Shown: one piece after another, positions 4,283 to 38,694 of the stretch
Position numbering within the stretch: the stretch's first letter is position 1
Layout of the letters: every line of letters begins with the position of its first letter
IMG/VR virus record: IMGVR_UViG_3300036715_001196
Coordinates: 1-64,000 of that record
DNA: 64,000 nucleotides
Direction: 5' to 3' (one strand)
Source of the DNA: a virus
Lineage: Duplodnaviria; Heunggongvirae; Uroviricota; Caudoviricetes
Notes under the pieces: generated by a model
Databases searched by the model: none
Told to the model about the DNA's origin: nothing
Seen by the model: only the letters and a program-made list of their open reading frames with translations
Translations under genes and position numbers: made by a program

Positions 4283-4702
4283 ATGCCTAATCCATGGGAT
4301 CACTTACCAAATGCTAAACACATTGATGCTATAATTGCATCAGTTAAAGCACACCTAAAAGAATGGGGTGCGGCAAGGGGTGCGGCAAGGGGTGCGGAGC
4401 GGGGTGAGGTGTGGGATGCGGTAAGGGATGCGGCGTGGGATGCGGCGTGGGATGCGGCATGGGATGCGGCGAGGGATGCGGCGAGGGATGGGGCGTGGGA
4501 AGCGGCCTGTAGTGCGGCATATTATGCGGCAAGGGATGCAATCATTGCCCTTATTGCATATGATGATTGCGCATATATGCTCGACTCAGATCCAAGCGAG
4601 TTAGAAATAATTGCTAAATTCGGTGACGAGAGAGCAATACTTTTATTAGCTGCATGTAAGGTATTTGCAGATATTAAGATACATAAACCAGTTATTGCTT
4701 GA
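4283..4702 (+). CDS. HEAT-like repeat protein, hypervariable family A member 1
   Basis: Internal ATG ([28 protein letters not shown]). Centre made of AARGAA/AAWDAA/AARDAA hexapeptide repeats. C-term [47 protein letters not shown]. Stop TGA lies inside the -35 of the next promoter. Confidence 0.75.
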   Translation: MPNPWDHLPNAKHIDAIIASVKAHLKEWGAARGAARGAERGEVWDAVRDAAWDAAWDAAWDAARDAARDGAWEAACSAAYYAARDAIIALIAYDDCAYMLDSDPSELEIIAKFGDERAILLLAACKVFADIKIHKPVIA

Positions 4703-9973: not shown

Positions 9974-10002
9974 TTGACACAATCTAACACAAGCAATATA
10001 AT
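9974..10002 (+). promoter_or_regulatory. sigma70-type promoter (TTGACA-N17-TATAAT)
   Basis: TTGACACAATCTAACACAAGCAATATAAT upstream of the AAA+ gene. Confidence 0.55.
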
Positions 10003-10031
10003 ACATACACAACAATATAGGGAGAGTAAAT

Positions 10032-11111
10032 ATGTCGTTTTATTTAAAAGATAGTGATCAATTATGGCCAACTGAAGCCGGTGTTTATGATGTACGTTCT
10101 TCATTGCCAGTCGGTACCTATACTGTAGGTAATCATCCTTTAAAGGGGTGGTATCTGAAAACAATTACTGACTTTGATATCTCAGGTAAAATTTACGGGA
10201 AAACTACGCGGCAGGCCGAGCGTATCTTAAATACATTCAACGTTCGCCCAGAAGCGACTGGTGTATTATTAAGCGGCGAAAAAGGCAGTGGTAAAACAAT
10301 GCTTGCTAAACTAGTATCACAATTGGCTGCAAAGCAAGGCATTCCTACGTTAGTTATTAATACACCGTTTACAGGTGACAGCTTCAATAACTTTATTCAA
10401 AGTATCGACGAAGCCTGCATTATTGTGTTTGATGAATTTGAAAAAGTGTTTGACAGTGAACAACAAGAAGAAATTCTTACATTGCTCGATGGTGTGTATC
10501 CAACAAAGAAATTATTTATCTTGACAGTAAACGATACATATCGGGTTAACAGTCATTTAAAAAATCGACCTGGTCGTATTTTTTATTCTGTCGAATATCA
10601 CGGGGTAGATGCTGATTTTATCAGAGAATATTGTAATGATAATCTCAACGATAAATCGCATATTACCCAACTAGTAAGGGTGGCAATGTTGTTTGAAACA
10701 TTCAACTTCGATATGCTAAAAGCATTAATTGAAGAAATGAATCGGTACAACGAATCTCCAATCGAAGCATTAGATATGTTAAATGCTAAACCGTTATCTG
10801 AAAGTCATTTAAAACACCGTGTTGAAGTAACATATAACGGTGAAAAGATTAATCCAGAAAACATTTGGCCGAACGTGATCCGTGGTAATCCTATGGTGGG
10901 TTCTGAGTTATCTATTGGATTTAATCCGAATCCAACCGACGATAGTGAATCTGTATCATTCTATATGGATCGTAAGTTTTTGAAGAAAGTAGACCCAGAA
11001 CAAGGCACATTTACATATGTCGTAAATGAAGGTAGCACAAATTCAGCCGTGATTGTGTTTACACGCGAAAAAAATTCACGAAGTGACGAAGATTGGATTA
11101 AAGCGTTCTAA
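10032..11111 (+). CDS. AAA+ ATPase
   Basis: Walker A GEKGSGKT, Walker B IIVFDEFEK, sensor NRPGRI. RBS GGGAGAGTAAATATG. Confidence 0.7.
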   Translation: MSFYLKDSDQLWPTEAGVYDVRSSLPVGTYTVGNHPLKGWYLKTITDFDISGKIYGKTTRQAERILNTFNVRPEATGVLLSGEKGSGKTMLAKLVSQLAAKQGIPTLVINTPFTGDSFNNFIQSIDEACIIVFDEFEKVFDSEQQEEILTLLDGVYPTKKLFILTVNDTYRVNSHLKNRPGRIFYSVEYHGVDADFIREYCNDNLNDKSHITQLVRVAMLFETFNFDMLKALIEEMNRYNESPIEALDMLNAKPLSESHLKHRVEVTYNGEKINPENIWPNVIRGNPMVGSELSIGFNPNPTDDSESVSFYMDRKFLKKVDPEQGTFTYVVNEGSTNSAVIVFTREKNSRSDEDWIKAF

Positions 11112-11170
11112 TTAGGTTGACTTATAGGGCAATAATGCCCTATAATTACGGTATGCATAAGGAAAACGTT

Positions 11171-11389
11171 ATGGAAAAATATGAACAGAAATACCCGTCC
11201 GCTTATTATCTATACAGATTTAAAGATGGCGAGAAATTTCATTATGTTACCCATAACGGAATTCGGACACGGCATGCCAGTATGGATAAAGCGTTAGGCG
11301 TCTGTGAGCGTATTAATAAAGAAGCAGGTTTGCCCGACATTAATGTATATAAAAGTAATAAATTTACGCTAAGGAGAACTGATGTTTAA
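11171..11389 (+). CDS. hypothetical protein
   Basis: ATG after AAGGAAAACGTT. Upstream TTGACT-N17-TATAAT promoter. Confidence 0.4.
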   Translation: MEKYEQKYPSAYYLYRFKDGEKFHYVTHNGIRTRHASMDKALGVCERINKEAGLPDINVYKSNKFTLRRTDV

Positions 11390-12623
11390 ACGACTTATCA
11401 TGCTATTTGCACTATTATTATCAATTAGTGCTTTTGCATTTGATTTACCAAAACCGTCTGAAGTGAAGGCAGTATATGCTTCGGGAGATTATGCTCGAGC
11501 AGAAATGTTGTTAAAGCAGGTTATGGTTGAACGACCAACCGCACCAGTACATTATCAATTAGGTCAAGTTTATTCAAAACAAGGTAAACATAAAGATGCT
11601 CTAAACGAGTTTAGGCAGGCACAGGCACTAGATCCTAGCTTAAAATTTGCGTCAAGTGCAGCAGCATTTACACGAGCACTAGCTGATGAGCAGACTATTG
11701 TCGCACCACAGCCAATAACAACTTCACAGCCGCAACACTCGCAGCGACAAGCTAATTCTCCAAATTCTGGCGAAGCCGGACAATTCTTTGTAATTCTATT
11801 TTTGTTACTTATTGCAGGTGCAGCTATTTATGGTATCTACTATCTTGTAACTACTATTAGGCATAAGAAAGCCATAGCACAGCAAGCTGATGACGAGCTT
11901 TCTAAGAAAAATTCTAATTTATTAGATTTATCAAAGCAACTCGACGATGCCTTACTCATTGCAAAAACTGCAAACTATAGCGAAGCAGATAAATTACAAA
12001 TTACACAACGTATTACGAGTCTCCAAGGCCAAGTTCGTAGTATATTAGCTGACCTAAAGGACGGTGAAGATATTTCGGCATATCGTATCTATACAGTTGA
12101 AGCGAATGTGCGTGAAGTTATAGAGCAGGCCACAAACGGTTTACCGGTGCCTGTTAGAGAAGACTCTATTTATAGTCCCAAAGCCCGCCGGAAAAATTCG
12201 AGTAAGAACAGAATGCTACCACCTGCTCCACCGCCCCCACCAGCTCCATGTCAGGTACGTGAAGGTGATAGAGTTGTTCGTCCGGACGCTGCACCAGCAT
12301 ACCAGTCAACACCTGCTCCTGCTTCTGCTCCTGTTATTGTAAATAATACTAGTTCTGGAAGTTCAGATTTATTAACAGGTATGATGATTGGTGAAATGAT
12401 GCACTCACATCGTGACAATGAACGTACAGTATATGTCGAACGTGAAGTATATTTGCCGCCAACAAGGACATCGCGCATTGATACAAACGATGATGACGAT
12501 ACATACACTGCACCAAGTCGGTCGTCAACACTTGATACAGACAATGACCGTAGTGATAGTTATACAACAGATTCATCAAGTATCGATTCGAGCTCTACTA
12601 GTGGCAACGACGATAGCTATTAA
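11382..12623 (+). CDS. membrane protein with N-terminal TPR-like region, central TM helix and Pro/Ser/Asp-rich tail
   Basis: Signal/TM N-terminus. TPR-like HYQLGQVYSKQGKHKDALNEFRQAQALDP. TM FFVILFLLLIAGAAIYGIYYLV. PPAPPPPPAP and S/D/T-rich C-terminus. Confidence 0.5.
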   Translation: MFKRLIMLFALLLSISAFAFDLPKPSEVKAVYASGDYARAEMLLKQVMVERPTAPVHYQLGQVYSKQGKHKDALNEFRQAQALDPSLKFASSAAAFTRALADEQTIVAPQPITTSQPQHSQRQANSPNSGEAGQFFVILFLLLIAGAAIYGIYYLVTTIRHKKAIAQQADDELSKKNSNLLDLSKQLDDALLIAKTANYSEADKLQITQRITSLQGQVRSILADLKDGEDISAYRIYTVEANVREVIEQATNGLPVPVREDSIYSPKARRKNSSKNRMLPPAPPPPPAPCQVREGDRVVRPDAAPAYQSTPAPASAPVIVNNTSSGSSDLLTGMMIGEMMHSHRDNERTVYVEREVYLPPTRTSRIDTNDDDDTYTAPSRSSTLDTDNDRSDSYTTDSSSIDSSSTSGNDDSY

Positions 12624-15676: not shown

Positions 15677-17227
15677 TTATCCCTTTGTCCAGACATAAAC
15701 AGCATTACCCGAATTCCAATATCTATCAAACCCGTTATTTCGCATATTTTCCCAGGCTGACAAACTACTATCAAATATATTAAGCACATTTTTTAATTTA
15801 TATTTTTGATATTTTATTCTAGATTCTAATGTTTTATAGTTATGTGTATATACATAGGAAGCAGGATTATTTCGTATGTGCTTAAATCCTAATTTTTCAT
15901 AAACCTTTCCGGTTCCCCATCGTAAATCACAAAACGAGACTACATCTGATGCATTTAAACATTGAGTTGCAAAATTAAATAATTTTGAAGCTCCACCTAT
16001 TACATTAATATTTAATTCATTACAAAACCTAATTAATTCATATTGGTGCCTGTTATATCTAGATTTGCCTAAACTTATCGCAGCAACTAATCTTCCTTCA
16101 TAATGCAGGCCTGCATAAAAAGACGCACCGGTGTGGCCTTGTATATGGTTTTCATTAAAAAATCTTGCTGCAATTTTCTTATCGATTATATTAACTGTAG
16201 TCTTCCTTGCATATATTCGAGAGCTAACACCTACAAATGATGCTATCCTAGATTTTACTAAATCTCGCTTATTGTTCCACTCTATATCTATAATATGATA
16301 TAATTTTATACCTACAGATTTTGCAACTGAATCTTTTTCGGTGTGATAATTAATTTTATTTGCCGACTCTTCTGAATGCCAAAAAATACCGTCATATTCA
16401 AAACCAATTCCTAATTCGGGTAAATAGATATCTATTTCTTTACCCGAAAGTGCTTTCCTATCATTGAAGATAATAGGACCACTATATATAGATGTTATGT
16501 AATCAAACATTTGTTGTTGGCCAACTGTTTGATGAATTTCAATACCTAAATTTTTAAATTGTACACAAAGTTGAGTATGCCCTACTTCTAATTTATCGGC
16601 TATCTCTTTTATGGATAATCCGCCGTCATACAATTCACTAAGCTTCTGTTTATCGTATTTGATATTGAACGATTCGTTACTAAGATGTTCTTGATTCTTT
16701 CTTATACGACCGTACCGTTCAATGCATGTATTTGTAATCTTTTCTTTGGTTGAACCAAGCATAGCGATATTAGTTACACCGTGTTCTTCAAACAGTCGGT
16801 CTTTTATTTCTTTTTGAACATTTGCTGACTTAAATGGATTATCGACGCCGAATTTTTCTATCATCTTTTTAGAATAATTTAATTTTGCAGCCTCTGTCAT
16901 TAATATAGTTTTTGAACCATATTTTTTTAAACACGTAGTTTCTATTCTATCTCTAATAGCTGTATCTGATTGTACACATTTAGGTGAACAGAAAATCCTG
17001 TATGAATTATTCTTATAATTCCAGTTAAGTGTATTACCACACTTACAGAATTTTTCTGTAAATTGATCATTTATAACATGCCATAACCGTTGCTTTGTTT
17101 TAGAATCAGGTGGTAGAAATGCAGTTTTTTCCTGAAGTGTTGCCATAAAGGTTTCGTTTGACATGAACGACTTTAATGCCTTAAAATTGCTATCTGCAAC
17201 ACAATAATCTTGTTTTGTAGGTCTCAT
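15677..17227 (-). CDS. large endonuclease-like protein with N-terminal Cys cluster, KYG repeats and a Vsr/PD-(D/E)xK-like core (paralog 1)
   Basis: KFCKCGNT...CSPKC zinc-finger-like N-terminus. Repeated KYG...DNP...K units. Core DIYLPELGIGFEYDGIFWHSE. C-terminal domain IYARK...HIQG...GGASKLF shared with ORF 22377-23864. Confidence 0.55.
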   Translation of the reverse strand: MRPTKQDYCVADSNFKALKSFMSNETFMATLQEKTAFLPPDSKTKQRLWHVINDQFTEKFCKCGNTLNWNYKNNSYRIFCSPKCVQSDTAIRDRIETTCLKKYGSKTILMTEAAKLNYSKKMIEKFGVDNPFKSANVQKEIKDRLFEEHGVTNIAMLGSTKEKITNTCIERYGRIRKNQEHLSNESFNIKYDKQKLSELYDGGLSIKEIADKLEVGHTQLCVQFKNLGIEIHQTVGQQQMFDYITSIYSGPIIFNDRKALSGKEIDIYLPELGIGFEYDGIFWHSEESANKINYHTEKDSVAKSVGIKLYHIIDIEWNNKRDLVKSRIASFVGVSSRIYARKTTVNIIDKKIAARFFNENHIQGHTGASFYAGLHYEGRLVAAISLGKSRYNRHQYELIRFCNELNINVIGGASKLFNFATQCLNASDVVSFCDLRWGTGKVYEKLGFKHIRNNPASYVYTHNYKTLESRIKYQKYKLKNVLNIFDSSLSAWENMRNNGFDRYWNSGNAVYVWTKG

Positions 17228-18540: not shown

Positions 18541-18960
18541 TCATAATTGTTTAATTTTTGAGACGGATTCTCTACGCTAAATCTTTCTAAACAAGTCTCT
18601 TTATATTTTTCACGATTATTATAATTCTCGGTATCATACCTATCCTCTTTAGTTTTAGCTGCTTTAGCTAATCGAGGTTTTGCATTAGCTGTGTTCTTCT
18701 CTGAAACTGATTTTGCTACCGCTGGTATTTATAATTGATGACTGACTCCATATTTAGTTTGAAATGTTTCTTTCTTTGTATCTTTAACTGATTGGAGAGA
18801 ATTAGTTGCCTCTACTCCGTAATTAACTAAGTTACTTGTCTTTATTTTTGCCTGCACACTAACTGCATTTTTAGCTGATTGTATGCCTATTACATCCTTT
18901 ATAGTTTGTAGTTTAGAGACATTGTCAACCCCGTATAATAACATATTGGTCTCTTTTCTT
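18536..18960 (-). pseudogene. decayed remnant of a third KYG-repeat endonuclease-like paralog
   Basis: Minus-strand ORF 18729-18944 contains KYG-repeat units (YGVDNVSKLQTIKD, NYGVEATNSLQSVKD, KYGVSHQ). A further unit (KYKETCLERFSVENPSQKLNNYE) continues in a different frame below 18728. Frameshifted and truncated. Confidence 0.4.
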
Positions 18961-19245
18961 TTTGCTGTTATAGCAGCAATATCTTTATTTTATATGTATC
19001 TTTATACTTGAGTTTGGTTGAACTAGTTTTACATTCATCGCAGCAATATCTTTTATAATTTCCGTATTTGTCTTTCAAGGATGTGTTTGTGCATGTTCGG
19101 TTTTCGGTTTTCGCATTTGTGTGTTTTTATAATTCTAGACATTATTTCTCCATAATAGAATGTCTTAGTTTATAACATCATTTCTACCTAAGACCAATTA
19201 TTCATCACCTATTGACATATGTTTATAAACATGTAATAATACTAT

Positions 19246-19500
19246 ATGCAAGTTAAAAAGACAGAATTTAGGTTAGTGTTACTAAATGCAGGGACTACTA
19301 GTTCTGTGTGGCGAAACTTTAACACTGATATAATTAATAGTTATGGTAGTTCTTACAATCATTATACATGGAAGAAAACATTAGGATATGAACTTTCAAA
19401 ATATAATGCCGAATACACGTTTATGGATGATGATGCAAAGTTATGTGCATATTTCGAAACTGAAGAAGATATGGCTTTCTTTGTTCTTAAATGGAGTTAG
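19246..19500 (+). CDS. FETEED-family small protein, tandem copy 1 of 6
   Basis: 84 aa ending FETEEDMAFFVLKWS. Confidence 0.5.
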   Translation: MQVKKTEFRLVLLNAGTTSSVWRNFNTDIINSYGSSYNHYTWKKTLGYELSKYNAEYTFMDDDAKLCAYFETEEDMAFFVLKWS

Positions 19501-22376: not shown

Positions 22377-23864
22377 ATGATAGGCATATTAAGAAACCTA
22401 TATAACACTACATCTGCAAATATCCTTGCAATTACATTAAAGCATAAACATAAAGAAATTTATGATTGGGTGATCTCTTCTACTGACGATAATTTTTTAA
22501 CATTCAACGAACGTGTTTTTTGGTTATTAAACCCATCTAATATTATCTGTGAAAATAATAAAAGACTAAAATATGTAGCAAAAAGAAAAGAATACGGTTT
22601 TTGTGGCGGACCGAATACATGTGAATGTCACAAGGCAGAAATTAAAGATCGAACCAGTAAAACCACTGTATTCGGCACCGAGGATTTTCTTGAGAAGAGA
22701 AAAGAAACCTGGACTGAAAAATACGGAACTGATAATCCGCAAAAATTACAAGAATACAAAGATTCGGCTACAGAAAGAAATACAGGTAAAGTGCATACTA
22801 AAGGTAAAAGACTCGAATATGTCGCAGATGGATATAATAAAGTCATAGCAAGGTTAAAGGACGAGTTCATACCCTTATTCACTGTAGACGAATACTTAGG
22901 CTCCGATCGTAAAAACGTATATAAATGGCAATGTGTTAAATGCTCTAAGATTGTTGATTCGCACATAGACTACGAAACTGTTCCAAGATGTACAATCTGT
23001 AATCCAAAAGAAGTGTCGACACCCGAACACGAATTAAGAGAGTATCTTGATTCATTTAATATCGCATATGAATGCAATGTTACAAACATTATTCCACCGC
23101 TTGAATTAGACATTTTTGTACCTACATTAAATGTTGCTATAGAGCACAACGGAACCTACTGGCATTCTTCAAAGAAAAAAGATAAAAATTATCATATTAA
23201 CAAATACAATATATGTAAAGAAAAAGGCATACACCTTATTCAGATATTCGGCGACCAATGGAAAAATAAACAAGATATTGTTAAAGCTAGATTAAAAAAT
23301 GTACTAGGTGTTGATACTAAAATTTATGCACGTAAATGCGATATAAAAGTTATAACAGGTAAAGAAAGTAAATTATTTTTAGATGAGCACCACATTCAAG
23401 GATGGGTATCGTCTAGTATAAAGTTAGGATTATTCTTTAACGATAATCTAGTTGCAGTAATGACATTTGGTAAACCTCGGTACGGAAATTTACAATCTTA
23501 CGAACTTTTACGATTTTGTTCTATCAATACCATTGTTGGTGGTGCTGATAAACTTTTCAAATACTTTTTAAGAAACTATAAACCTGATACTGTTGTCTCG
23601 TATGCCGATCGTTGCTGGTCGGCAGGTAATTTATATAAAAAATTAGGATTTAAAGATGTAACTGAGGATAAAAATAATATTGGGTACTTTTATATAAAAA
23701 ACGATACACGGATTAATAGGCTAGCATATACTAAGAAAAAATTAGTTAGTTTAGGTTTTGATTCAGAAAAAACCGCAGAAGAAATATTAGAATCTGAAGG
23801 ATTTCTATTAATCCATACCTGCGGCAATTATAAATTTATCTACGACAATAATCGCTTGACGTAA
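22377..23864 (+). CDS. large endonuclease-like protein with KYG repeats and a Vsr/PD-(D/E)xK-like core (paralog 2)
   Basis: Cys cluster CGGPNTCECH. KYG-type repeats (TEKYGTDNPQKLQEYKD). C-terminal IYARKCDIKVI...HHIQGW...GGADKLF collinear with the minus-strand paralog at 15677-17227. Confidence 0.55.
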   Translation: MIGILRNLYNTTSANILAITLKHKHKEIYDWVISSTDDNFLTFNERVFWLLNPSNIICENNKRLKYVAKRKEYGFCGGPNTCECHKAEIKDRTSKTTVFGTEDFLEKRKETWTEKYGTDNPQKLQEYKDSATERNTGKVHTKGKRLEYVADGYNKVIARLKDEFIPLFTVDEYLGSDRKNVYKWQCVKCSKIVDSHIDYETVPRCTICNPKEVSTPEHELREYLDSFNIAYECNVTNIIPPLELDIFVPTLNVAIEHNGTYWHSSKKKDKNYHINKYNICKEKGIHLIQIFGDQWKNKQDIVKARLKNVLGVDTKIYARKCDIKVITGKESKLFLDEHHIQGWVSSSIKLGLFFNDNLVAVMTFGKPRYGNLQSYELLRFCSINTIVGGADKLFKYFLRNYKPDTVVSYADRCWSAGNLYKKLGFKDVTEDKNNIGYFYIKNDTRINRLAYTKKKLVSLGFDSEKTAEEILESEGFLLIHTCGNYKFIYDNNRLT

Positions 23865-23915
23865 AAACACATATACCGTATAATTTACACACCTACTTAC
23901 TTAACAAGGAAAATC

Positions 23916-25097
23916 ATGGCAAACAACAACTCAAAAGAAGCTGTTTTAGACCAGTTGACACGAGCACGCATCTCCCTTTTATTAAAACAGCCGTTTTGGG
24001 GAACTCTTGCAACTCGGTTGATCTTAAAAGATGCAACCGACGAAGAGTGGTGCAACACTGCTGCTACAGACGGTCGATATTTCTACTACAACCGGGATTT
24101 TATTAGCAAATTAACTAAACCGGAAACAGTGTTTTTGGTAGCTCATGAAGTAGAACATTGCGTCTACGACCACATGAGTCGTCGTGGTAGTCGTAGACCG
24201 CAGATGTGGAATGCTGCTGCTGACTATGTAATTAATTATGAGCTGCACGAATTTGGTGTAGGTGAATTACCTAATCCAAAGACATCTGGTGTTCAGGCAT
24301 GTTTTGATGCAAAATATAAAGGCATGTTTGCTGAAGAAGTTTACGAATTGTTGTTAAAAGCCCCCGATGCAAAATTTCCAGAATTTGACATTCACTTGGA
24401 ACCAGGTGATAGCAAAGGTGAGCCGATGACTGAAGAAGAACGTCGAGTATTAGGTGACGAAATTCGTGGTGCTGTTATGCAAGCTGCTAAGGCTGCTGGT
24501 GCAGGTAATGTTCCTGCAGGTGTGAAACGCATGTTGAAAGACTTAACAAATCCACAAATGGATTGGCGCGAATTACTGAATATGCAGATTCGGTCAATGA
24601 TTAAAAATGATTTTACTTGGCAACGTTGTTCACGTAAGAGCCAAGCAAGTGGTATTTACTTGCCCGGTACAAAAGAAGACACTCGCATCGAAGCAGCAAT
24701 TGCAATCGACACATCTGGTTCAATGAGTGAAGATATGCTTCGTGATTTGTTAAGCGAAACAAAGGGCATTATGGAGCAATTTACAGACTTTAAATTGCGA
24801 GTATGGTGCTTTGATACAAAAGTTTATAATGAAGTTATGTTTACACCAGATAATATCGACGACATCGATACATACGAAATTAAGGGAGGTGGTGGCACAG
24901 ATTTTATTTGTAATTGGAAATACATGAAAGAAAACGACATCATGCCAGAACGCTTCGTTATGTTCACTGATGGTTATAATTGTCAAACATCATGGGGTGA
25001 TCCAGATTATTGTGATACTTTGTTTATTGTACACGGTGATCCGCACCACAAATTGCAAGGTGATTTTGGTACTACTGCCTGGTATCACAACGAGTAA
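23916..25097 (+). CDS. metallopeptidase-domain + VWA-domain protein (DUF2201-type partner of MoxR ATPases)
   Basis: HExxH zinc motif (VAHEVEHCVYDH) in the N-terminal half. MIDAS-type DTSGSMS motif in the C-terminal VWA half. Architecture typical of MoxR-associated VWA proteins. Confidence 0.7.
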   Translation: MANNNSKEAVLDQLTRARISLLLKQPFWGTLATRLILKDATDEEWCNTAATDGRYFYYNRDFISKLTKPETVFLVAHEVEHCVYDHMSRRGSRRPQMWNAAADYVINYELHEFGVGELPNPKTSGVQACFDAKYKGMFAEEVYELLLKAPDAKFPEFDIHLEPGDSKGEPMTEEERRVLGDEIRGAVMQAAKAAGAGNVPAGVKRMLKDLTNPQMDWRELLNMQIRSMIKNDFTWQRCSRKSQASGIYLPGTKEDTRIEAAIAIDTSGSMSEDMLRDLLSETKGIMEQFTDFKLRVWCFDTKVYNEVMFTPDNIDDIDTYEIKGGGGTDFICNWKYMKENDIMPERFVMFTDGYNCQTSWGDPDYCDTLFIVHGDPHHKLQGDFGTTAWYHNE

Positions 25098-29150: not shown

Positions 29151-29675
29151 ATGAAAAACGTGTTTGCATGCCTAATTTTATTTTTTGTCAGTCTTTCAGC
29201 AATGTCTCAAACAACAGAATGGAAGATTAAAGAAGTAAAAGATAGAGACAATTCGACAGTAGGTTATATATATCACACATCAGCTGTTGGTACATTAATT
29301 GGTACTAGAATTGAAAAATATGCAACTGGATTACGACTTGTTTGCTCTACTAAGAATTCTCCAAACTTTGTTGCTGATCCACTTATTGCTATTTATTGGA
29401 ATACAATGAACGGCATATATATGCGTGATGTTGAAGTCTCAGTGGATAATAAAATCCCTGATACGAAATTATCAGGGCAGTGGGAGGCAGATGGTGCCCT
29501 ATTGCTAAGGACTATTCCCGACTCTAAGAATTTAATGCAAGCTTTGAAAACATCACATACTATCAGACTTAGTTGGGTGGGTGAGGATTCATTTAAAAGA
29601 ATTACAGTTTTTGATTTGAAAAGTTTTAATCTTCGGGCGGCTGAATTTAGTTCTCTTTGCAAAACGGAGTTATAA
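29151..29675 (+). CDS. secreted protein (signal peptide)
   Basis: N-terminal MKNVFACLILFFVSLSAMSQ signal peptide. RBS CAGGAGAGTTCAATG. Confidence 0.5.
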   Translation: MKNVFACLILFFVSLSAMSQTTEWKIKEVKDRDNSTVGYIYHTSAVGTLIGTRIEKYATGLRLVCSTKNSPNFVADPLIAIYWNTMNGIYMRDVEVSVDNKIPDTKLSGQWEADGALLLRTIPDSKNLMQALKTSHTIRLSWVGEDSFKRITVFDLKSFNLRAAEFSSLCKTEL

Positions 29676-29683
29676 TAACTACT

Positions 29684-30028
29684 ATGCAAACAATGAAACC
29701 AAATAATGCAATGATCCTACTTGTAACTATTGCAATCAGCCTAGCTGCATTCATGTTTTGGGCAGCAAATACAGAAACATTAACGTCTTACCTTAATACA
29801 AGTAATTTATCTATAAGTAATAGTTCTATCGAAAGTGCAGAATTATTATTTAAAGGCGATGAAATATTCTTAACTGTATATTTAAAAGAAAAAACGGAAT
29901 GTAACGATATAATTAACATGCTAGGTGTTAGAAATTTAGTAATAATGGGCAAGTTATATAATTCTAGTTGCATAGAAACTAAAAGTGAGTTTGTTAGAAT
30001 TGTTTACAGAACACCGGCTAAAATATGA
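29684..30028 (+). CDS. membrane-anchored hypothetical protein
   Basis: N-terminal hydrophobic helix AMILLVTIAISLAAFMFWAA. Confidence 0.4.
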   Translation: MQTMKPNNAMILLVTIAISLAAFMFWAANTETLTSYLNTSNLSISNSSIESAELLFKGDEIFLTVYLKEKTECNDIINMLGVRNLVIMGKLYNSSCIETKSEFVRIVYRTPAKI

Positions 30029-30285
30029 GAGAAAAAGTCTTTGTACAATTTATATTTGAACCGGTATATTCCCAGTCAGCACCGATGTGGTTAGCTGAAT
30101 TAGGCTCAGATTTTAAGGTCATACACTCGAGTAATCATTACAAAAATTATGAGACACATTTCATCATAGAAGGTATTATTGATTCGGTTGCTGCTACCGC
30201 TCTCAAGTTAAGCAACCCTTTCCTAGGTGAAAGAATGAGAATGTCTACTATATCTAACGAGTTAAAGAACAAGTATAGAAAGTAA
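30025..30285 (+). CDS. hypothetical protein
   Basis: 86-aa ORF, ATGA-coupled. Confidence 0.35.
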   Translation: MREKVFVQFIFEPVYSQSAPMWLAELGSDFKVIHSSNHYKNYETHFIIEGIIDSVAATALKLSNPFLGERMRMSTISNELKNKYRK

Positions 30286-30304
30286 TTATCTTCTCGATAA
30301 ATAG

Positions 30305-30691
30305 TTGATGACAACTATTCTTAAAATACAAGCTTTACCTACTAGCCCGTTTGAAGGTAGTGGTTTGGCACCTATTGTGATAACAAACAACATTCCTAGT
30401 TATTTTAAGATAACAGGTGTAGACCTTGATCAAATTAAATCGTTTAACTGGTATCCAGAGCAGGCAGCGAGCGTATCCTTTGAAACTAGGCAATTAATTC
30501 TTTTGAGTAAAACTGAAGGTACATTTATGGTTAAGGTACTAAATAATTATTTAGACACTGACGACAGAGGTGGCCGATTAAGTTTTCAATTAGAAAATGG
30601 AACAACTCTTTGTGTGCCCGTTATTACATATGGGCCAGTGTCAGTAGGTCCGTTGCAGCAATCACCTAATTCAGGGCTTATAACAGGATAA
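30305..30691 (+). CDS. hypothetical protein
   Basis: 128-aa ORF. Confidence 0.4.
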   Translation: MMTTILKIQALPTSPFEGSGLAPIVITNNIPSYFKITGVDLDQIKSFNWYPEQAASVSFETRQLILLSKTEGTFMVKVLNNYLDTDDRGGRLSFQLENGTTLCVPVITYGPVSVGPLQQSPNSGLITG

Positions 30692-30731
30692 ACCTGTTGA
30701 CGTTACTGCACATATGTAGTAAAATGTGTGC

Positions 30732-31508
30732 ATGAAGACTCTAATTATAGCGATGTGTTTATTAGGTTCTGTTAGTTCTCCTACAGAAGCTAAAATACGA
30801 CACCATCACAAAACACACCAAGTACCTGCTTTTAGCGCAAAGAGTTTTGTTGTTGCAGACGAAACAGGCGTTGTTATAAAAGAAAAGGGTGGCGATACTA
30901 TAAGGCCCATTGCCTCTATCTCTAAATTAATGATCGGTTTGATAGCGGCAGACCAAAATCTCAATGAAATACTGAACATACCTCAGATAAGGTTAGTACA
31001 AAGTAAAATACCAAAAGAAACAAAAACAATGACACGCCGTGAATTATTAACATTAGCACTTGTTAAGTCTGATAATTTCGCAGCACAAATCCTGTGCTTA
31101 AATTTAGATAACTGTGTTATGCAAATGAATACAAAGGCTACAGAATTAGGTATGTCTAATACCAAGTATGTAGAACCCACTGGCTTAGATGTTAGAAATG
31201 TTAGTACAGCGAAAGATTTAGTAAAATTAGTGGTGGTTGCTGCATCAAACCCGACAATTACCGAAATATCAAGTATGCCTGATGCCGAAATATACACATC
31301 AAACAAAACAATCAAAATAAGAAATACTAACCCACTTACAGCAAAATTAGATATATTGCTATCTAAAACAGGATTTACTGATCCGGCCGGTGGATGTCTA
31401 GTTATGGTACTTAAATTAAAAATCGGGCATAAGATATTTGTATTATTAGGCAGTAAGAATGCACATACGAGAATACCTGATATGCTTAAATTAATAAAGG
31501 AAGTATGA
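30732..31508 (+). CDS. D-alanyl-D-alanine carboxypeptidase/endopeptidase, peptidase S11 (PBP fold) with signal peptide
   Basis: SxxK (ASISK), SxN (SDN) and KTG (KTGFT) active-site motifs in canonical order and spacing. N-terminal signal peptide. Confidence 0.75.
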   Translation: MKTLIIAMCLLGSVSSPTEAKIRHHHKTHQVPAFSAKSFVVADETGVVIKEKGGDTIRPIASISKLMIGLIAADQNLNEILNIPQIRLVQSKIPKETKTMTRRELLTLALVKSDNFAAQILCLNLDNCVMQMNTKATELGMSNTKYVEPTGLDVRNVSTAKDLVKLVVVAASNPTITEISSMPDAEIYTSNKTIKIRNTNPLTAKLDILLSKTGFTDPAGGCLVMVLKLKIGHKIFVLLGSKNAHTRIPDMLKLIKEV

Positions 31509-31797
31509 GAGCACAAAAACATCGTAAGAAACGCAAAATAATTCGATGTATGTATATATGTTTTGAATACAATGATTATATGGAATGTCGTGCCTTATTT
31601 CGTAAACAATTTAAAGTTGTTAGGGAACATGCTCAAACATACTCTTCTGGACTTAGATTTGTGTTCGTATGTATTAAGTATAGAACAGATGAAGACATGT
31701 GTGCATTAACTTTGGCATACAGCGACCAAAAGATGAGTACATTTGTTATTTTAACTTCTTATAACTTACAACATAAACATAGAATATCAATATACAA

Positions 31798-32016
31798 ATG
31801 AAAAAATACTTTGTAAGAATAGCAGACAATAAAGTAATAGAATTTGAAAATTATGCTAATTCTAAAAATTTAAACTATCTTGCGATGTCATACGACTATT
31901 GCGACGGTGTCGCTACTGTAGCATATAGTATAACGATGGATATATATTCTGCATTAGAATTAAAACTTTCTATGCCGTTAATAGGTTGTATGACATTTAA
32001 AAAAATCAGCGTATAA
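31798..32016 (+). CDS. hypothetical protein
   Basis: 72-aa ORF. Confidence 0.3.
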   Translation: MKKYFVRIADNKVIEFENYANSKNLNYLAMSYDYCDGVATVAYSITMDIYSALELKLSMPLIGCMTFKKISV

Positions 32017-32048
32017 TACAGTATTATAAACACTAACAGGAGCGTAAC

Positions 32049-32375
32049 ATGCCACGATATACATTCACATTCCCATATACAGAAGAAAGAACTTTTCGCG
32101 ATGTAATGAGCCGCTTGGACCCGAGTGAATTTAAGATTATTGAAGATATTAAAATTCTTGATCTAGAACACCCTCGGCTTAGCGATCGCCAAGCAATATT
32201 AGAAATGGACCCTGAAGCAGCACTCACCTTTCGTTTAGGTACAAAGAATGTAAAAATTCGGCGAGATCGTTCTGAAGAAGAACTTGCCGAAGAAAAGCGC
32301 ATTAATGATCAACATACAATTAAGGTAACTATTAAGGTTGATGGATTAGAATTGCCGCCTGTTGGTACACCGTGA
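32049..32375 (+). CDS. hypothetical protein
   Basis: RBS CAGGAGCGTAACATG. 108 aa. Confidence 0.45.
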   Translation: MPRYTFTFPYTEERTFRDVMSRLDPSEFKIIEDIKILDLEHPRLSDRQAILEMDPEAALTFRLGTKNVKIRRDRSEEELAEEKRINDQHTIKVTIKVDGLELPPVGTP

Positions 32376-32617
32376 TGTTGAAAAAGTCGTACCGTATTTT
32401 CATCGCACCAGATGATATAGAAAATATAGAGAATTCATTAAAAATTATGGGCATCAGTGAATTCTCTATAGCTAGACACTTTATCACAAATACAACTTAT
32501 CGACTTAGATACGATATTTCTTTATCTAAATATGAATTGTTATTCTTACGCCTATCTTGCAGTAGTGGGGAATTTAAACAGATAAGTAATGAGAACCCTT
32601 GTACTACTAAGGTATAA
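32372..32617 (+). CDS. hypothetical protein
   Basis: ATGA-coupled 81-aa ORF. Confidence 0.35.
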   Translation: MMLKKSYRIFIAPDDIENIENSLKIMGISEFSIARHFITNTTYRLRYDISLSKYELLFLRLSCSSGEFKQISNENPCTTKV

Positions 32618-32647
32618 GTAAGGAGGGTTTCAACTAGGAGTTATTCT

Positions 32648-33100
32648 ATGTTTTACAAAACCCTTCTACTAATCGGCATTATTTTCATTGCTACTGTTGC
32701 TCTAGGTGCAGATTCAAAATCCTCGTCTATTGTCTGGAAAGAAATCTTCAAATCTAAAAATGATATTTTCAGAGTTTACACAGATGAAAATTCATTCGAT
32801 AATGCTATGGTTGAAAATAATAAGATTTCAACAGGTACTGTATTAGCTGTTCCCACTGATTACATATTATTAGACATCAATGGTAAGAAAACTATAGTTA
32901 AGAGTGTTGCAAGGTTTATGGCTGTTGATTGTGATAACGGCATATCTTTCCCAATGATGGATTTGTATTTCTCTGTTGAAAAGCCTACCACAAGTGATAA
33001 ACCGATAAAGACTATAGAATATAAAGATTATGAAAAGGTTGCTGAACAATTAAAGAAATCATCATATCTTTATACTACTTTTTGTCCTGTATATATCTAA
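32648..33100 (+). CDS. secreted protein, paralog pair member 1
   Basis: Signal peptide MFYKTLLLIGIIFIATVALGA. RBS AGGAGTTATTCTATG. Related to ORF 33203 (MFYK N-terminus, VLAVPTDYILLDINGKKT vs ILIVPTNPITGTNMSG, Cys near the C-terminus). Confidence 0.45.
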   Translation: MFYKTLLLIGIIFIATVALGADSKSSSIVWKEIFKSKNDIFRVYTDENSFDNAMVENNKISTGTVLAVPTDYILLDINGKKTIVKSVARFMAVDCDNGISFPMMDLYFSVEKPTTSDKPIKTIEYKDYEKVAEQLKKSSYLYTTFCPVYI

Positions 33101-33202
33101 ATTTTTACTGATTTTAAAATAGCTCGATAAGTAAAATTATAAGGCTGTAGTACATAGCAATAAGTGCATGTATAACCTAGCCTAATTTTTAGGTATATTA
33201 CT

Positions 33203-33634
33203 ATGTTTTATAAAATCATACTCTCGTTATTTCTCCTATGCACTAGCATTATTTCATTTGCTAATGAAAAATCTAATATGGATTGGCAATTAATCCCGAA
33301 TGTTGTTACAAACGAATACAATGGATTCTTTAGTAGTAATCATACGAGGATTCAGAAGTCCAGTGATATCACGCTTATAAATACCATAATACTAATTGTC
33401 CCGACAAACCCTATCACTGGTACTAACATGTCGGGCACACCTTTTGAAGTAAAGGGCATTGTTAAATTTACTGCAATTGTGTGTAGTAGTCGTTCTATAG
33501 CAACATCTAAAACATTTTACTTTAATATTGCTCAACCTAGTTCAACTGATAAACCTATTTTTGATTCAGACTCGCCTGAAGTAACGGAACTTGATGAGAC
33601 TGACCCTGTTTACCTTATGTTCTGTACTAAATAA
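33203..33634 (+). CDS. secreted protein, paralog pair member 2
   Basis: Signal peptide MFYKIILSLFLLCTSIISFA. Collinear similarity to 32648-33100. Confidence 0.45.
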   Translation: MFYKIILSLFLLCTSIISFANEKSNMDWQLIPNVVTNEYNGFFSSNHTRIQKSSDITLINTIILIVPTNPITGTNMSGTPFEVKGIVKFTAIVCSSRSIATSKTFYFNIAQPSSTDKPIFDSDSPEVTELDETDPVYLMFCTK

Positions 33635-33643
33635 TTATCCTTA

Positions 33644-33672
33644 ATTGACAAAGAGACTGCATTTATGTATAA
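33644..33672 (+). promoter_or_regulatory. sigma70-type promoter (TTGACA-N17-TATAAT)
   Basis: TTGACAAAGAGACTGCATTTATGTATAAT upstream of ORF 33705. Confidence 0.55.
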
Positions 33673-33704
33673 TTACAATATAAATGCAGGTTTAAGCGGA
33701 ATAT

Positions 33705-33932
33705 ATGAGAACTTACAACGAAGCATTAGATGAATTTTTAGACATTAACAAGCCTAATAGGTATAATGATTCTGGTTGCTTGTTTTCTATCTCTTGTACA
33801 TTATTCTCGTCAATTTATAAAAAAGATATAAATGTAGTTGCAGATGAAATGCATGCTATCCTAGCCGCTGAGGAGAAGGCAGATAAGGCTAAGCAGAAAG
33901 AAACAGGGTCTCTAACGAAGAACGATAATTAG
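33705..33932 (+). CDS. hypothetical protein
   Basis: 75-aa ORF. Confidence 0.35.
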   Translation: MRTYNEALDEFLDINKPNRYNDSGCLFSISCTLFSSIYKKDINVVADEMHAILAAEEKADKAKQKETGSLTKNDN

Positions 33933-33956
33933 CAAATATTGCTGCACGGAAATTAA

Positions 33957-34325
33957 ATGAAAAAAATACTACCAACATATAGTGAATTGCAAGAATTTGT
34001 TGACAAACTTGCATTGGATGAAAATTCGACAATATTGATTGTTGAATTACCAGATAATACCGGGTATAGTGTTGAATGGACACAACATAAATTATATACT
34101 AACGAAGAATGCCGACAAGTCCCCGACGAGTTATATATTGGTAACGATAAGATACAATTTGTACAAGACTTATCAGCCGACGAATGTAAAACTATATTAC
34201 GCGAATTGCTAAGAGAAGAACGGTTACGACATACAGCAGGCAGTAAAGAATATAATAACTTCAATGATTTTGATGATTTTGACGGCGAAATAGACAATCT
34301 TTCACCTAAAAGGACATTGCATTAA
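33957..34325 (+). CDS. hypothetical protein
   Basis: 122-aa ORF. Confidence 0.45.
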   Translation: MKKILPTYSELQEFVDKLALDENSTILIVELPDNTGYSVEWTQHKLYTNEECRQVPDELYIGNDKIQFVQDLSADECKTILRELLREERLRHTAGSKEYNNFNDFDDFDGEIDNLSPKRTLH

Positions 34326-34327
34326 TT

Positions 34328-34579
34328 ATGGTCACATTACCGGCAGAATTTGTTGCTATTAAGTATCCTGGTTATTTTTGGAATACAAAAGAATTAACAT
34401 TGTATTCTATAAAGATGTTAGGTGTATTACGCCCAGTGAAAAGGCAAAATGCCACTTTCTTTAATAAATTTAGAGTAGGATATCAAGTGTCACATCATGG
34501 ACGAACGCGATTTATAGATTTTGGCGAATTAATGCATTTACCGTTAAAAAACTCTATAATTCCTGTAAAACAAAACTGA
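34328..34579 (+). CDS. hypothetical protein
   Basis: 83-aa ORF. Confidence 0.4.
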   Translation: MVTLPAEFVAIKYPGYFWNTKELTLYSIKMLGVLRPVKRQNATFFNKFRVGYQVSHHGRTRFIDFGELMHLPLKNSIIPVKQN

Positions 34580-35028
34580 AAGTCTATATAGCATTATTAA
34601 AAATAGATGTAAAGAAGGTTATTGCTGTTATATTAACTAGTAATTATAAATATAATGGCCAACTTGTATCATGCACTAAAACATATTGATCAGTTGCCAC
34701 CGCGGCAAGGTGGCAGCTAAAGACCATTGCAGCTGGTAGATCCCATAAGAAATATACAGGGCCGTTACACTTCGTGAAAATACAGAAAAAATTATACAGA
34801 AGATCTTTACCAATATTTAAGAAACTTTTCGAAGATAAATAAAATATATAGAAAATTGACAAACATAATACATTTATGTACAATAACAAGTAACAACACT
34901 AAGGAATACAATGAAAGAGCTTTTAACAATACTCTATTACGAATTTTATTGCAATTTTGTATTTTCTTTGTTATCTCCTCAATACATACAGGTATATTAT
35001 CCTGTATTACTTAGTTAACTAACATCTC

Positions 35029-35104
35029 CGGCGTTCGTATAGTGGATAATACAGCGTTCTTCTAAAGCGTGAACAGGGATTCGATTTCTCTACGCCGGAC
35101 CACA
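35029..35104 (+). pseudogene. tRNA-like remnant (intact acceptor and D arms, candidate UCU anticodon, broken T arm)
   Basis: CCGGCGT...ACGCCGG-A-CCA: a perfect 7-bp acceptor stem with 3' ACCA. D arm GTAT-AGTGGATA-ATAC. Anticodon loop CTTCTAA. No canonical T stem can be formed. Followed directly by a terminator. Confidence 0.25.
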
Positions 35105-35106
35105 TA

Positions 35107-35140
35107 TAAAAAGCTACTTCTACGAAGTAGCTTTTTTATT
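35107..35140 (+). terminator. rho-independent terminator
   Basis: AAAAAGCTACTTC-TAC-GAAGTAGCTTTTTT. Confidence 0.7.
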
Positions 35141-35617
35141 TCCTATAGGCAATATGTCTATTTGCCTATATTATGCACATACGGTAGAGAAGATATTAGA
35201 AATAAATTTATTACATACGGGGCTATATAATGAGTTATTACCGCACTTTACCATACGGAAATATAGGTATGTTTCATCGTATAGATTTTGCATTAGTTCA
35301 ACGTGGCGTTAATGCAAAAGTGTCGATTTATGGTCGCGGTGGGAGAATTTATTATGTTCCCGATAACGAAATTCATAAACTACCAAAATCAGATGATTAT
35401 CGACCATAGCTGCCTGATGAAAATGGAGAGAATGTAACTGGATATATTTTAAACATAACACGGGATATTGAAACTATACGAGATTCAATGCAAAGTAATG
35501 AGTGGGTAGAAATAAAAGACTTGCCGCTTACTGCTTATTATCTAAAAGCAGATAGTTGACAATTTATTATAATTACCATATAATGCTTATATTAAGATTA
35601 CGCAGAAAGGAAATAAA

Positions 35618-35884
35618 ATGTTACGCACACCTGATACAGTTAAATTTGATGCATCCAACAAAACACACCGCGCTGCTGTTCGCTCATTTTTAAAACGTCG
35701 AGCATGGGGAGATTCTCCTATCCGTTTTTCACATGATCCAGAATACGGCAGTGTTGCTGATCAAGTACAGGCTAAAATGCTGCAATGGTATATGGCACAA
35801 GATGAAGCAAAAGATTCAAAAGCAGCGGCGAAACTGGTTAAGGTTGTTAATAAAACAACAATTCGACAATTAAAAACTGCTTAG
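35618..35884 (+). CDS. hypothetical protein
   Basis: RBS AAAGGAAATAAAATG. Upstream TTGACA...CCATATAAT promoter-like sequence. Confidence 0.45.
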   Translation: MLRTPDTVKFDASNKTHRAAVRSFLKRRAWGDSPIRFSHDPEYGSVADQVQAKMLQWYMAQDEAKDSKAAAKLVKVVNKTTIRQLKTA

Positions 35885-35892
35885 TAAGGTAA

Positions 35893-35921
35893 TTGTAAAT
35901 TTGCTGTAAATGTAGTATAAT
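35893..35921 (+). promoter_or_regulatory. sigma70-type promoter driving the tRNA (TTGTAA-N17-TATAAT)
   Basis: TTGTAAATTTGCTGTAAATGTAGTATAAT, about 25 nt upstream of the tRNA 5' end. Confidence 0.55.
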
Positions 35922-35946
35922 GTTTTATGTTGTAAGAATGTATAGC

Positions 35947-36034
35947 GGGTCAGACGCACTATTGGAGGGATGCCCTGAACTCATAATTCAGTCGCGAAAG
36001 CGCCATGTCGGTTCGAACCCGACCTGACCTACCA
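35947..36034 (+). tRNA. tRNA, anticodon CAU (Met/Ile2-type) with an unusually long variable arm, encoded CCA
   Basis: Acceptor GGGTCAG/CTGACCT (G1-U72). D arm GCA-CTATTGGAGGGA-TGC. Anticodon arm CTGAA-CTCATAA-TTCAG (U33, CAU, A37). Extra arm CGCG-AAA-GCGC. T arm GTCGG-TTCGAAC-CCGAC. Discriminator A + CCA. 88 nt. Confidence 0.6.
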
Positions 36035-38214: not shown

Positions 38215-38694
38215 ATGTCTAATGCATGGGCTCACTTACCAAATTCTAAACATATTGATGCTATAATTGCATCAATTAAAGCACACCCAAAAGAATGGGG
38301 TGCGGTCTGGGAAGCGGCAGGGAATGCGGCAGGGAATGCGGCAAGGGTTGCGGCGCGGGATGCGGCATATTATACGGCAAGGGATGCGGCAAGTAGTGCG
38401 GCATATTATGTGGCAAGGGTTGCGGCGTGGGTTGCGGCAAGGGAAGCGGCGTGGGATGCGGCAAGGGAAGCGGCGTGGGATGCGGCAAGGGGCGCGGCAA
38501 GGGATGCAGCATATTATACGGCAAGGGATGCAATCATTGCCCTTATTGCATATGATGATTGCGCATATATGCTCGACTCAAATCCAGGTGAGCTTGAAAT
38601 CCTTGCTAAGTTCGGTGACGAAAGAGCAATACTTTTATTATCTGCATGTGATGCATTTGCAGCTATTAAGGAAAAAGAACAATGCAAAAATTGA
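38215..38694 (+). CDS. HEAT-like repeat protein, family A member 5
   Basis: MSNAWAHLPNSKHIDAIIASIKAHPKEW. Repeats. Conserved C-term. ATG 1 nt after the upstream stop. Confidence 0.8.
   Translation: MSNAWAHLPNSKHIDAIIASIKAHPKEWGAVWEAAGNAAGNAARVAARDAAYYTARDAASSAAYYVARVAAWVAAREAAWDAAREAAWDAARGAARDAAYYTARDAIIALIAYDDCAYMLDSNPGELEILAKFGDERAILLLSACDAFAAIKEKEQCKN

Follow-up and report, generated by a model that had tools for sequence, protein, structure and literature searches.

A class-II-shaped tRNA with anticodon CAU in an AT-rich phage belongs to a conserved phage family and may decode AUA

In bacteria, a long extra arm is a hallmark, and part of the identity, of the tRNAs for leucine, serine, tyrosine and selenocysteine. 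Which amino acid would a tRNA carry, and which codon would it read, if such an arm were joined to the anticodon CAU? The question is posed by an 88-nt tRNA gene, here called tRNA(CAU), at positions 35947-36034 (plus strand) of a Caudoviricetes record in IMG/VR (IMGVR_UViG_3300036715_001196, positions 1 to 64,000; "the window" denotes this whole 64-kb stretch). A preliminary description of the window had singled out its combination of features as non-standard. We found that tRNA(CAU) is no isolated oddity but a member of a conserved phage family with covarying helices and, judging from sequence features and gene partners, the family probably consists of tRNA-Ile2-type, lysidine-dependent decoders of AUA.

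A covarying phage family of long-armed tRNA(CAU)

ARAGORN called exactly two tRNAs in the window, Arg(TCT) at 35028-35102 and the 88-nt tRNA with anticodon CAT at 35947-36034, to which it gave the isotype label Met. When the whole window was searched with the Rfam tRNA model RF00005 at its gathering threshold (29 bits) and with default filters, tRNA(CAU) was missed and only the tRNA-Arg was reported. In a local search of 281 bases with laxer filters, the same model matched 35947-36031 over its full length with 34.5 bits (E=7.9e-6). The ARAGORN call and this local score uphold the earlier view that the 88-nt tRNA is genuine, with exactly the described ends and with U33 and A37. Default Rfam filters also miss two relatives, at 2669-2756 of locus L165 and 1283-1368 of locus L123, which score above threshold if searched locally. 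Members of the window type are probably under-annotated by standard pipelines, or labelled "Met".

The acceptor stem of tRNA(CAU) is GGGUCAG/CUGACCU with a G1-U72 pair, followed by A8 and C9, and the 3' end carries A73 and an encoded CCA. Positions 8 and 14 are A8/U14 instead of U8/A14. The D stem has only 3 bp (GCA/UGC) with a C13-A22 mismatch, and its loop is UAUUGGAGGG. The anticodon arm pairs CUGAA with UUCAG around the loop CUCAUAA, and the T arm is GUCGG-UUCGAAC-CCGAC. The variable region of 15 nt, U-CGC-GAAA-GCG-CCAU, forms a 3-bp stem under a GAAA tetraloop. A long extra arm had been described correctly, but not its pairing: the strands of the proposed CGCG-AAA-GCGC are not complementary, and the arm is CGC-GAAA-GCG. 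The sequence is identical in 8 near-identical contigs from different samples; its fold z-score is only -0.62.

Relatives were collected by scanning IMG/VR. A loose pattern (CTCATAA, a gap of 18-30 nt, GGTTCGAANCC) gave at least 120 loci, numbered here with the prefix L, in which ARAGORN called at least 83 CAU tRNAs of 82 nt or longer, and the peculiar A8 and D loop of the window tRNA were common to a subset of these. With the pattern TATTGG-N6-GC-N6-CTCATAA, a second scan returned 72 loci and 36 long members, giving at least 36 family homologues in IMG/VR viral contigs of unrelated phages. The exact anticodon-arm pattern had 0 matches in IMG/VR. The members nearest to the window tRNA (L123, L166, L165 and L146) have the same D arm, GCAC-UAUUGG-xGGGA-UGC, and the same anticodon arm.

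We aligned 26 distinct family sequences (alignment A1). Standard pairs filled 99.5% of the cloverleaf cells, compared with 27-48% in controls with slid partners. Both sides had changed at 20 of the 23 pairs, including all seven of the acceptor stem, all five of the anticodon stem and all three of the extra arm, and no shuffle reached the observed covariation. Two of the three extra-arm stem positions show four pair types, and the Levitt tertiary pair 15-48 also covaries (A-U in 24 sequences, G-C in 2). Invariant in the alignment are A8, U14, U33, G18G19, the loop CUCAUAA with A37, the T loop, A73 and CCA. The G1-U72 pair, which had been counted among the peculiarities of the gene, is indeed present but is simply one of the states that this position tolerates: the pair is G-C in 16 sequences, A-U in 7 and G-U in 3. 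With a variable region longer than 10 nt that folds into a stem-loop supported by covariation, tRNA(CAU) has a class II body. The members were gathered through ARAGORN calls, which biases the set toward foldable sequences, but the compensatory changes are real all the same. Thus, tRNA(CAU) is a real tRNA, conserved with compensatory changes and restricted to phages. Locus L179 carries an 88-nt paralogue of the family with an AAU anticodon, called Ile(aat). With its extra arm and T stem both broken, it looks like a duplicate in decay, and we discounted it as support for isoleucine identity.

The family pattern extended to the T loop was searched in 185,579 bacterial and archaeal species (one genome each) and hit three sites, none of them a tRNA, which bears out the earlier statement that CAU on a class II body is non-standard for bacterial tRNA-Met and tRNA-Ile2. 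The family consensus found no member among GenBank phages by blastn. GC content of the carrier loci ranges from 33 to 62%, and in a tblastx comparison of these loci with the window, similarity was confined to the tRNAs and to a short stretch near ~26,100, a putative HNH-type motif. Because no bacterial, archaeal or GenBank phage member was found and the carriers share almost nothing with the window, the family is phage-restricted and patchy. In the searchable literature we found no description of a long-armed CAU tRNA in phages, which is absence of evidence only.

Several features of the body resemble tRNA-Leu, namely the 3-bp D stem with a 13-22 mismatch, the AUUGG motif, A73 and the GAAA-capped extra arm. 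The top GenBank phage match to the family consensus is the tRNA-Leu(UAG) of the Ralstonia jumbo phage RsoM2USA, and tRNA-Leu is also the nearest non-CAU class II relative in the ranking by a hidden Markov model of the family. The determinants of LeuRS include A14 and the U8:A14 pair (PMC9976931). We infer that the family body is of Leu type with the Leu identity lost.

Amino acid and codon

CAU tRNAs with C34 are charged by MetRS, and tRNA-Ile2, whose C34 is converted to lysidine by TilS, is charged by IleRS and reads AUA; the acceptor determinants are A73 and C4-G69 for isoleucine, and U4-A69 and A5-U68 for methionine (PMC9976931). CAU, A37, A38 and A73, as expected of tRNA-Ile2, are present in the window copy and invariant in the family. 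Of 30 family sequences, 26 have C5-G68 and 19 have C4-G69; the window copy has U4-A69 and C5-G68. A5-U68 is found in 7 of 10 class I CAU tRNAs with U32. Across the family the acceptor pairs lean towards Ile2, in that the contrast between C5-G68 and A5-U68 fits the determinant lists for isoleucine and methionine; those of the window copy are mixed. C4-G69 and C5-G68 were also, reportedly, named as TilS determinants by Ikeuchi in 2005.

Gene partners point the same way. The fullest arrays (L141; L145/L150/L163) hold three CAU tRNAs, one initiator-like, one class I and one family member. In L141 the class I tRNA has a U32...C38 loop, and in L228 the U32-type tRNA sits away from tilS. Arg(UCU) is the commonest partner tRNA, present in 14 of 39 family loci, and minimal sets consist of Arg(UCU) and the family member, with or without Leu(UAA); the window is of this kind. 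Arg(UCU), Leu(UAA) and Ile2 form the classic rare-codon set, also found in T4 and in Stx phages. AUA makes up 26.4 per 1000 codons and 35% of the isoleucine codons in the window, and AGA is its top arginine codon. In T4-like phages, tRNAs with CAU are taken to be tRNA-Ile that carries lysidine (PMC1524935).

A further line of evidence came from a phage tilS locus. L204 (= L058, IMGVR_UViG_3300042402_007381) encodes a 213-aa protein that has only the N domain of TilS (TIGR02432, 125.5 bits against a cutoff of 93.6; PF01171, 4e-35). In this locus (10001-11700), tilS precedes a class I CAU tRNA reduced to its first 30 nt (~10672-10701), a nuclease-like open reading frame (ORF) of 261 aa at 10716-11498 with a PD...EVK motif (PD-(D/E)XK-like) and the family tRNA; after these come Leu(UAA), Gln, Cys and Arg(UCU). 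The related tilS loci L228 and L205 have the same order, with a class I CAU tRNA in the slot before Leu(UAA) and Arg(UCU). This slot tRNA has the loop CUCAUAA, C4-G69 and C5-G68; it is intact in L228, and in L205 (10769-11053) it is split after the anticodon by a group I intron of ~208 nt (RF00028, 54 bits, 10798-11006), the split tRNA being uncalled by ARAGORN. The family tRNA therefore holds the tRNA-Ile2 position in L204. In 22 of 26 phage loci with a TilS N domain there is no tRNA within 10 kb, so the tilS association rests on L204, L205 and L228.

Proteins of 300-435 aa with a PP-loop SGGxDS motif are encoded in several loci that carry a family member (L058, L091, L150/L163, L152/L176 and L156). 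They have no Pfam match, or sub-threshold matches to QueC or to the MnmA-type HUP domain (tRNA_Me_trans), and may be an uncharacterised family of phage RNA- or nucleotide-modifying ATPases. L204 also carries, at 18880-19272, a permuted two-piece tmRNA of alphaproteobacterial type (RF04321, 89 bits; RF01849, 60.6 bits), which hints at an alphaproteobacterial host.

Decoding of AUA could proceed as follows. The two tRNA genes of the window, each with its own predicted promoter, would supply decoders for heavily used A-ending codons, AGA and AUA. TilS, supplied by the host or encoded elsewhere in the phage genome, would turn C34 of tRNA(CAU) into lysidine, and the lysidine form would then be charged by IleRS and read AUA. 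Molecules left unmodified would go to MetRS and read AUG, which would do no harm. In practical terms, the phage supplies a decoder for AGA itself and probably one for AUA as well.

Several points weigh against an Ile2 role. The window copy has the Met-type pair U4-A69 instead of C4-G69, and CAU with A73 suffices for MetRS, which charges unmodified tRNA-Ile2 (PMC9976931). The acceptor rules are those of E. coli and may not apply to the hosts here. A long tRNA(UAU), a possible AUA reader, accompanies the family member in four loci (L135, L146, L159 and L165), and an Ile2 role would therefore be redundant there. Linkage to tilS was seen in one family locus of ~39, and the 64-kb window holds no PP-loop gene or SGGxDS motif that would mark a TilS. 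L007 contains, next to its family member, a class I CAU tRNA with C5-G68 that is itself a possible Ile2. Finally, the U32...C38 loop is equated with elongator Met partly on the strength of plastid and Bacillus sequences.

The chief alternative is an extra elongator tRNA-Met on a class II body, charged by MetRS, keeping C34 without lysidine and reading AUG. We consider this possible but doubtful. It would agree with CAU and A73 as the dominant MetRS determinants (PMC9976931), with U4-A69 in the window copy, with the possible coverage of AUA by tRNA(UAU) in the four loci and with the ARAGORN label; it is opposed by the missing A5-U68 and by C5-G68 in 26 of 30 sequences, by the separate class I elongator-type and initiator-type CAU tRNAs that the fuller arrays already hold, by the tilS-adjacent slot that a family member occupies in L204 and by the partners Arg(UCU) and Leu(UAA), which fit a rare-codon set. 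Charging by LeuRS regardless of the anticodon, which would place leucine at AUG or AUA as missense recoding, is suggested by the class II body, A73, the Leu-like D arm, the RsoM2USA match and the model ranking. It is nevertheless very improbable: the required A14 and U8:A14 (PMC9976931) are invariantly replaced by U14 and A8, the extra-arm stem has only 3 bp and the window gives no sign of a non-standard code. We rejected a tRNA-Leu identity, as A14, U8 and a Leu anticodon are all missing.

That the RNA serves no translational end or acts in defence, as a decoy or nuclease-resistant stand-in directed at a host tRNA-targeting system or as a replacement allele that travels with a homing endonuclease and escapes the cleavage of the class I gene, seems quite unlikely, even though the row of class I CAU remnant, PD-(D/E)XK-like ORF and family tRNA in L204, the recurrence of this ORF family upstream of family tRNAs in L001/L145/L150/L163/L180 (with a fragment in L178) and the unrelatedness of the carrier phages, which suggests mobility, all lend it some colour. 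Phage tRNAs that evade anticodon nucleases have been reported (PMC10264068). Yet the nuclease-like ORF has no homologue in the window, and the features relevant to translation (U33, CAU, A37, G18G19, the T loop, A73 and CCA) are all invariant; such a role would explain the shape of the body without replacing decoding, and is largely compatible with an Ile2 function. A decaying pseudogene or a false positive of the tRNA finder is scarcely credible. The gene was missed by the Rfam run over the whole window, its fold z-score is unremarkable and the AAU paralogue of L179 is visibly decayed, but compensatory changes run through every helix family-wide, the sequence is identical in the 8 contigs from different samples and it scored 34.5 bits in the local search; the covariation effectively refutes this reading.

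With the tRNA-Ile2-type function as the probable one, the loci allow a further, tentative step towards a reason for the long arm. In a second lineage (L001/L145/L150/L163/L180) a homologue of the L204 nuclease-like ORF (57% identity) precedes the family tRNA by 70-100 nt; the ORF survives as a fragment in L178, and the window has no homologue. In L204 the ORF sits exactly where the class I CAU tRNA is truncated, suggesting a mobile cassette of a nuclease and a replacement tRNA, and the arrangement may thus be a homing nuclease with its replacement tRNA. It is conceivable, if rather unlikely, that a private class-II-shaped tRNA-Ile2 evolved in phages and spread among unrelated ones, in some lineages as such a PD-(D/E)XK homing-type nuclease cassette. 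Its Leu-like body with U8 and A14 swapped would escape charging by LeuRS; the gene would resist the nuclease by which its class I tRNA-Ile2 counterpart is destroyed, or the RNA would resist a host tRNA-targeting defence; and lysidinylation would be kept, perhaps through a minimal phage TilS without acceptor-reading domains.

If so, isoleucine would have its first class II tRNA known from nature, and the family would be one case of a wider phage habit of giving class I anticodons (Asn, Lys, Cys, Glu, Asp, Thr, His and the UAU of isoleucine) to long-armed tRNAs. The shape of tRNAs is more plastic in viruses than textbooks allow, and the family offers a natural test case for shape-based discrimination of tRNAs by TilS, IleRS, MetRS and LeuRS. 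Should the link to nucleases or defence hold, it would give a reason why phages re-engineer tRNA bodies, and would also provide orthogonal tRNA scaffolds for genetic-code engineering.

Other long-armed tRNAs were encountered in the phage loci. A second odd type has the anticodon UAU, a length of 90-95 nt and an extra arm (L135, L159, L083, L046, L075 and L025; also L146 and L165). Its extra-arm stem covaries (CGC/GCG, CAA/UUG, CGA/UCG, GGC/GCC), the conserved loop, CAGAUAA, resembles the anticodon loop of tRNA-Ile(GAU), and this tRNA type occurs with the CAU family in four loci. Many arrays of L001-L120 contain long (82-97 nt), class-II-shaped tRNAs with class I anticodons, often beside a tRNA of normal length with the same anticodon (Asn 21 of 69, Cys 11 of 56, Lys 6, Glu 4, Thr 4, Asp 3, His 3), in a sample biased by the choice of loci for a long CAU tRNA. 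Long-armed CAU tRNAs unrelated to the family (for example in L006, L043, L057 and L069) start with YGCGGG and end with CCCGCaAC; their acceptor resembles that of an initiator, and its 1-72 pair is weak or mismatched. In phages, then, CAU tRNAs acquired long arms on more than one occasion.

Neighbouring elements and the phage

About 900 nt upstream of tRNA(CAU), the intact tRNA-Arg(UCU), a reader of AGA, lies on the plus strand at 35028-35102 and is identical in 6 near-identical contigs. It had been taken for a tRNA relic without a T stem, which does not hold: it is a complete tRNA-Arg(TCT), called by ARAGORN and scoring 51 bits with RF00005, with a 7-bp acceptor, a 4-bp D stem, the anticodon loop CUUCUAA, the T loop UUCGAUU and a 5-bp T stem (AGGGA/UCUCU) recovered in the minimum free energy fold. 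The terminator reported behind it was found, as an intrinsic-terminator-like hairpin of 13 bp and a T run at 35108-35136 (plus strand), directly after the tRNA. A sigma-70-like promoter, TTGACA-17-TACAAT (11 of 12 consensus positions), is predicted at 34856-34884 (plus strand), ~140 nt upstream of tRNA-Arg.

Directly upstream of tRNA(CAU), the consensus scan gave a plus-strand promoter-like site, TTGTAA-17-TATAAT, at 35893-35921, ending 25 nt before the tRNA. The tRNA had been credited with a consensus promoter of its own; the site is there but matches 10 of 12 positions, and the perfect promoter (TTGACA-17-TATAAT, 12 of 12) is at 35556-35584 (plus strand), upstream of an 88-aa ORF at 35618-35884 (plus strand) that lies between the two tRNAs. 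Transcription from 35556-35584 could reach tRNA(CAU) by read-through: the only terminator-like call in between is a weak hairpin (5 bp, 35706-35719) that falls within the 88-aa ORF. The small ORFs flanking the tRNAs, the 88-aa ORF included, have no Pfam match, and IMG/VR scans with neighbouring proteins (the 88-aa ORF and a SleB-like hydrolase) gave no relatives.

Also between the tRNAs is a 59-aa ORF (plus strand) that ends in TAG. It had been placed at 35221-35400; its actual position is 35230-35409, with the TAG at 35407-35409. The reading frame does continue past the stop, as had been noted, for 49 further codons up to a TGA at 35557-35559 (35410-35559, plus strand). Searching with the joined 109-aa product returned P0001, an uninterrupted protein of 109 aa with 98% identity and with Tyr in place of the stop, so the 59-aa ORF is a truncated allele of a 109-aa gene. 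The contig of P0001, L194, is 99.85% identical to window positions 29342-35885, and position 35409 is G in the window and T in L194, which turns TAT into TAG. Among contigs more than 99.7% identical to the window, all from the same phage in several JGI and SRA samples, TAT is present in L194, L197, L198 and L200, where the extension is coding, and TAG in L195 and L196. Samples that contain this phage are JGI 3300035180-3300037010 and the runs SRR11727740, SRR11723144 and SRR11723145. In place of the suggested pseudogene or readthrough site, the TAG is a strain-level, segregating nonsense polymorphism in a small accessory gene, a single-base change from TAT with four intact and two TAG contigs, and neither an old pseudogene nor a demonstrated readthrough. 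ARAGORN found no suppressor tRNA in the 64-kb window, and reading TAG, TGA or TAA as sense gave no selective gain of plus-strand ORFs there. We rejected a non-standard genetic code, since the standard code fits the window, and likewise programmed readthrough or recoding at 35407, where the stop is not conserved.

The window has a GC content of ~36% and many small plus-strand ORFs. Neither the region, nor the tRNA with its flanks, nor 50 kb of the window matched any of 50,697 GenBank phages by megablast or blastn. At 22377-25097, a homing-endonuclease-like protein (DUF7487) adjoins a DUF2201 metallopeptidase/VWA protein, in the same order as in PA5oct-type Pseudomonas jumbo phages and with 44-49% amino-acid identity. 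The most plausible reading of the window is a segment of a novel AT-rich jumbo phage, distantly akin to the PA5oct-type group. A second DUF7487 protein is encoded at 15677-17227 (minus strand). Paralogous genes in many copies are scattered over the window (~78-90% nucleotide identity; N-terminus MSNxWxxLPNxxxIDAI...), with one copy at 38215-38694 and DNA of this type also near 4416, 4929, 20981, 21508, 21635, 43042, 43541, 44067, 44524, 48526, 52970 and 63706.

Comparison with known systems

Two known types of tRNA were excluded. Initiator tRNA-fMet has a 1-72 mismatch and three G-C pairs (29-41, 30-40 and 31-39) in the anticodon stem; tRNA(CAU) has a G1-U72 wobble, which is G-C or A-U elsewhere in the family, and the anticodon stem CUGAA/UUCAG. 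Allo-tRNAs share with the family a long extra arm on a normally class I anticodon, and some occur in phage tRNA clusters. Unlike them, with their 8/4 or 9/3 acceptor/T branches, Sec-like D arms and G73 or U73 (Mukai et al., PMC5389517), the family is 7/5 with A73, and both its 7-bp acceptor and its 5-bp T stem covary.

With elongator tRNA-Met the family shares CAU and A73, and the window copy also U4-A69; it differs in its class II body, in C5-G68 for A5-U68 and in coexisting with elongator-type CAU tRNAs. Bacterial tRNA-Leu has in common with it the long extra arm, A73, the 3-bp D stem with a 13-22 mismatch and the AUUGG motif of the D loop, whereas the anticodon is CAU, the Leu determinants A14 and U8 are swapped and the extra-arm stem is shorter. 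The likeness to tRNA-Ile2 (E. coli ileX, the T4 tRNA-Ile, ileZ of Stx phages) lies in CAU, CUCAUAA, A73 and C5-G68, in most members also in C4-G69, in the co-encoded tRNA-Arg(UCU) of the AT-rich phage window and in a member placed downstream of a phage tilS, in the slot that a class I Ile2-like gene holds elsewhere. It departs from tRNA-Ile2 in the class II shape, the 15-nt variable region with its GAAA-capped stem, A8/U14, the 3-bp D stem, U4-A69 in the window copy and the absence of the family from bacterial genomes. The family is thus probably most like tRNA-Ile2 in function and built like tRNA-Leu, and falls within the definition of neither.

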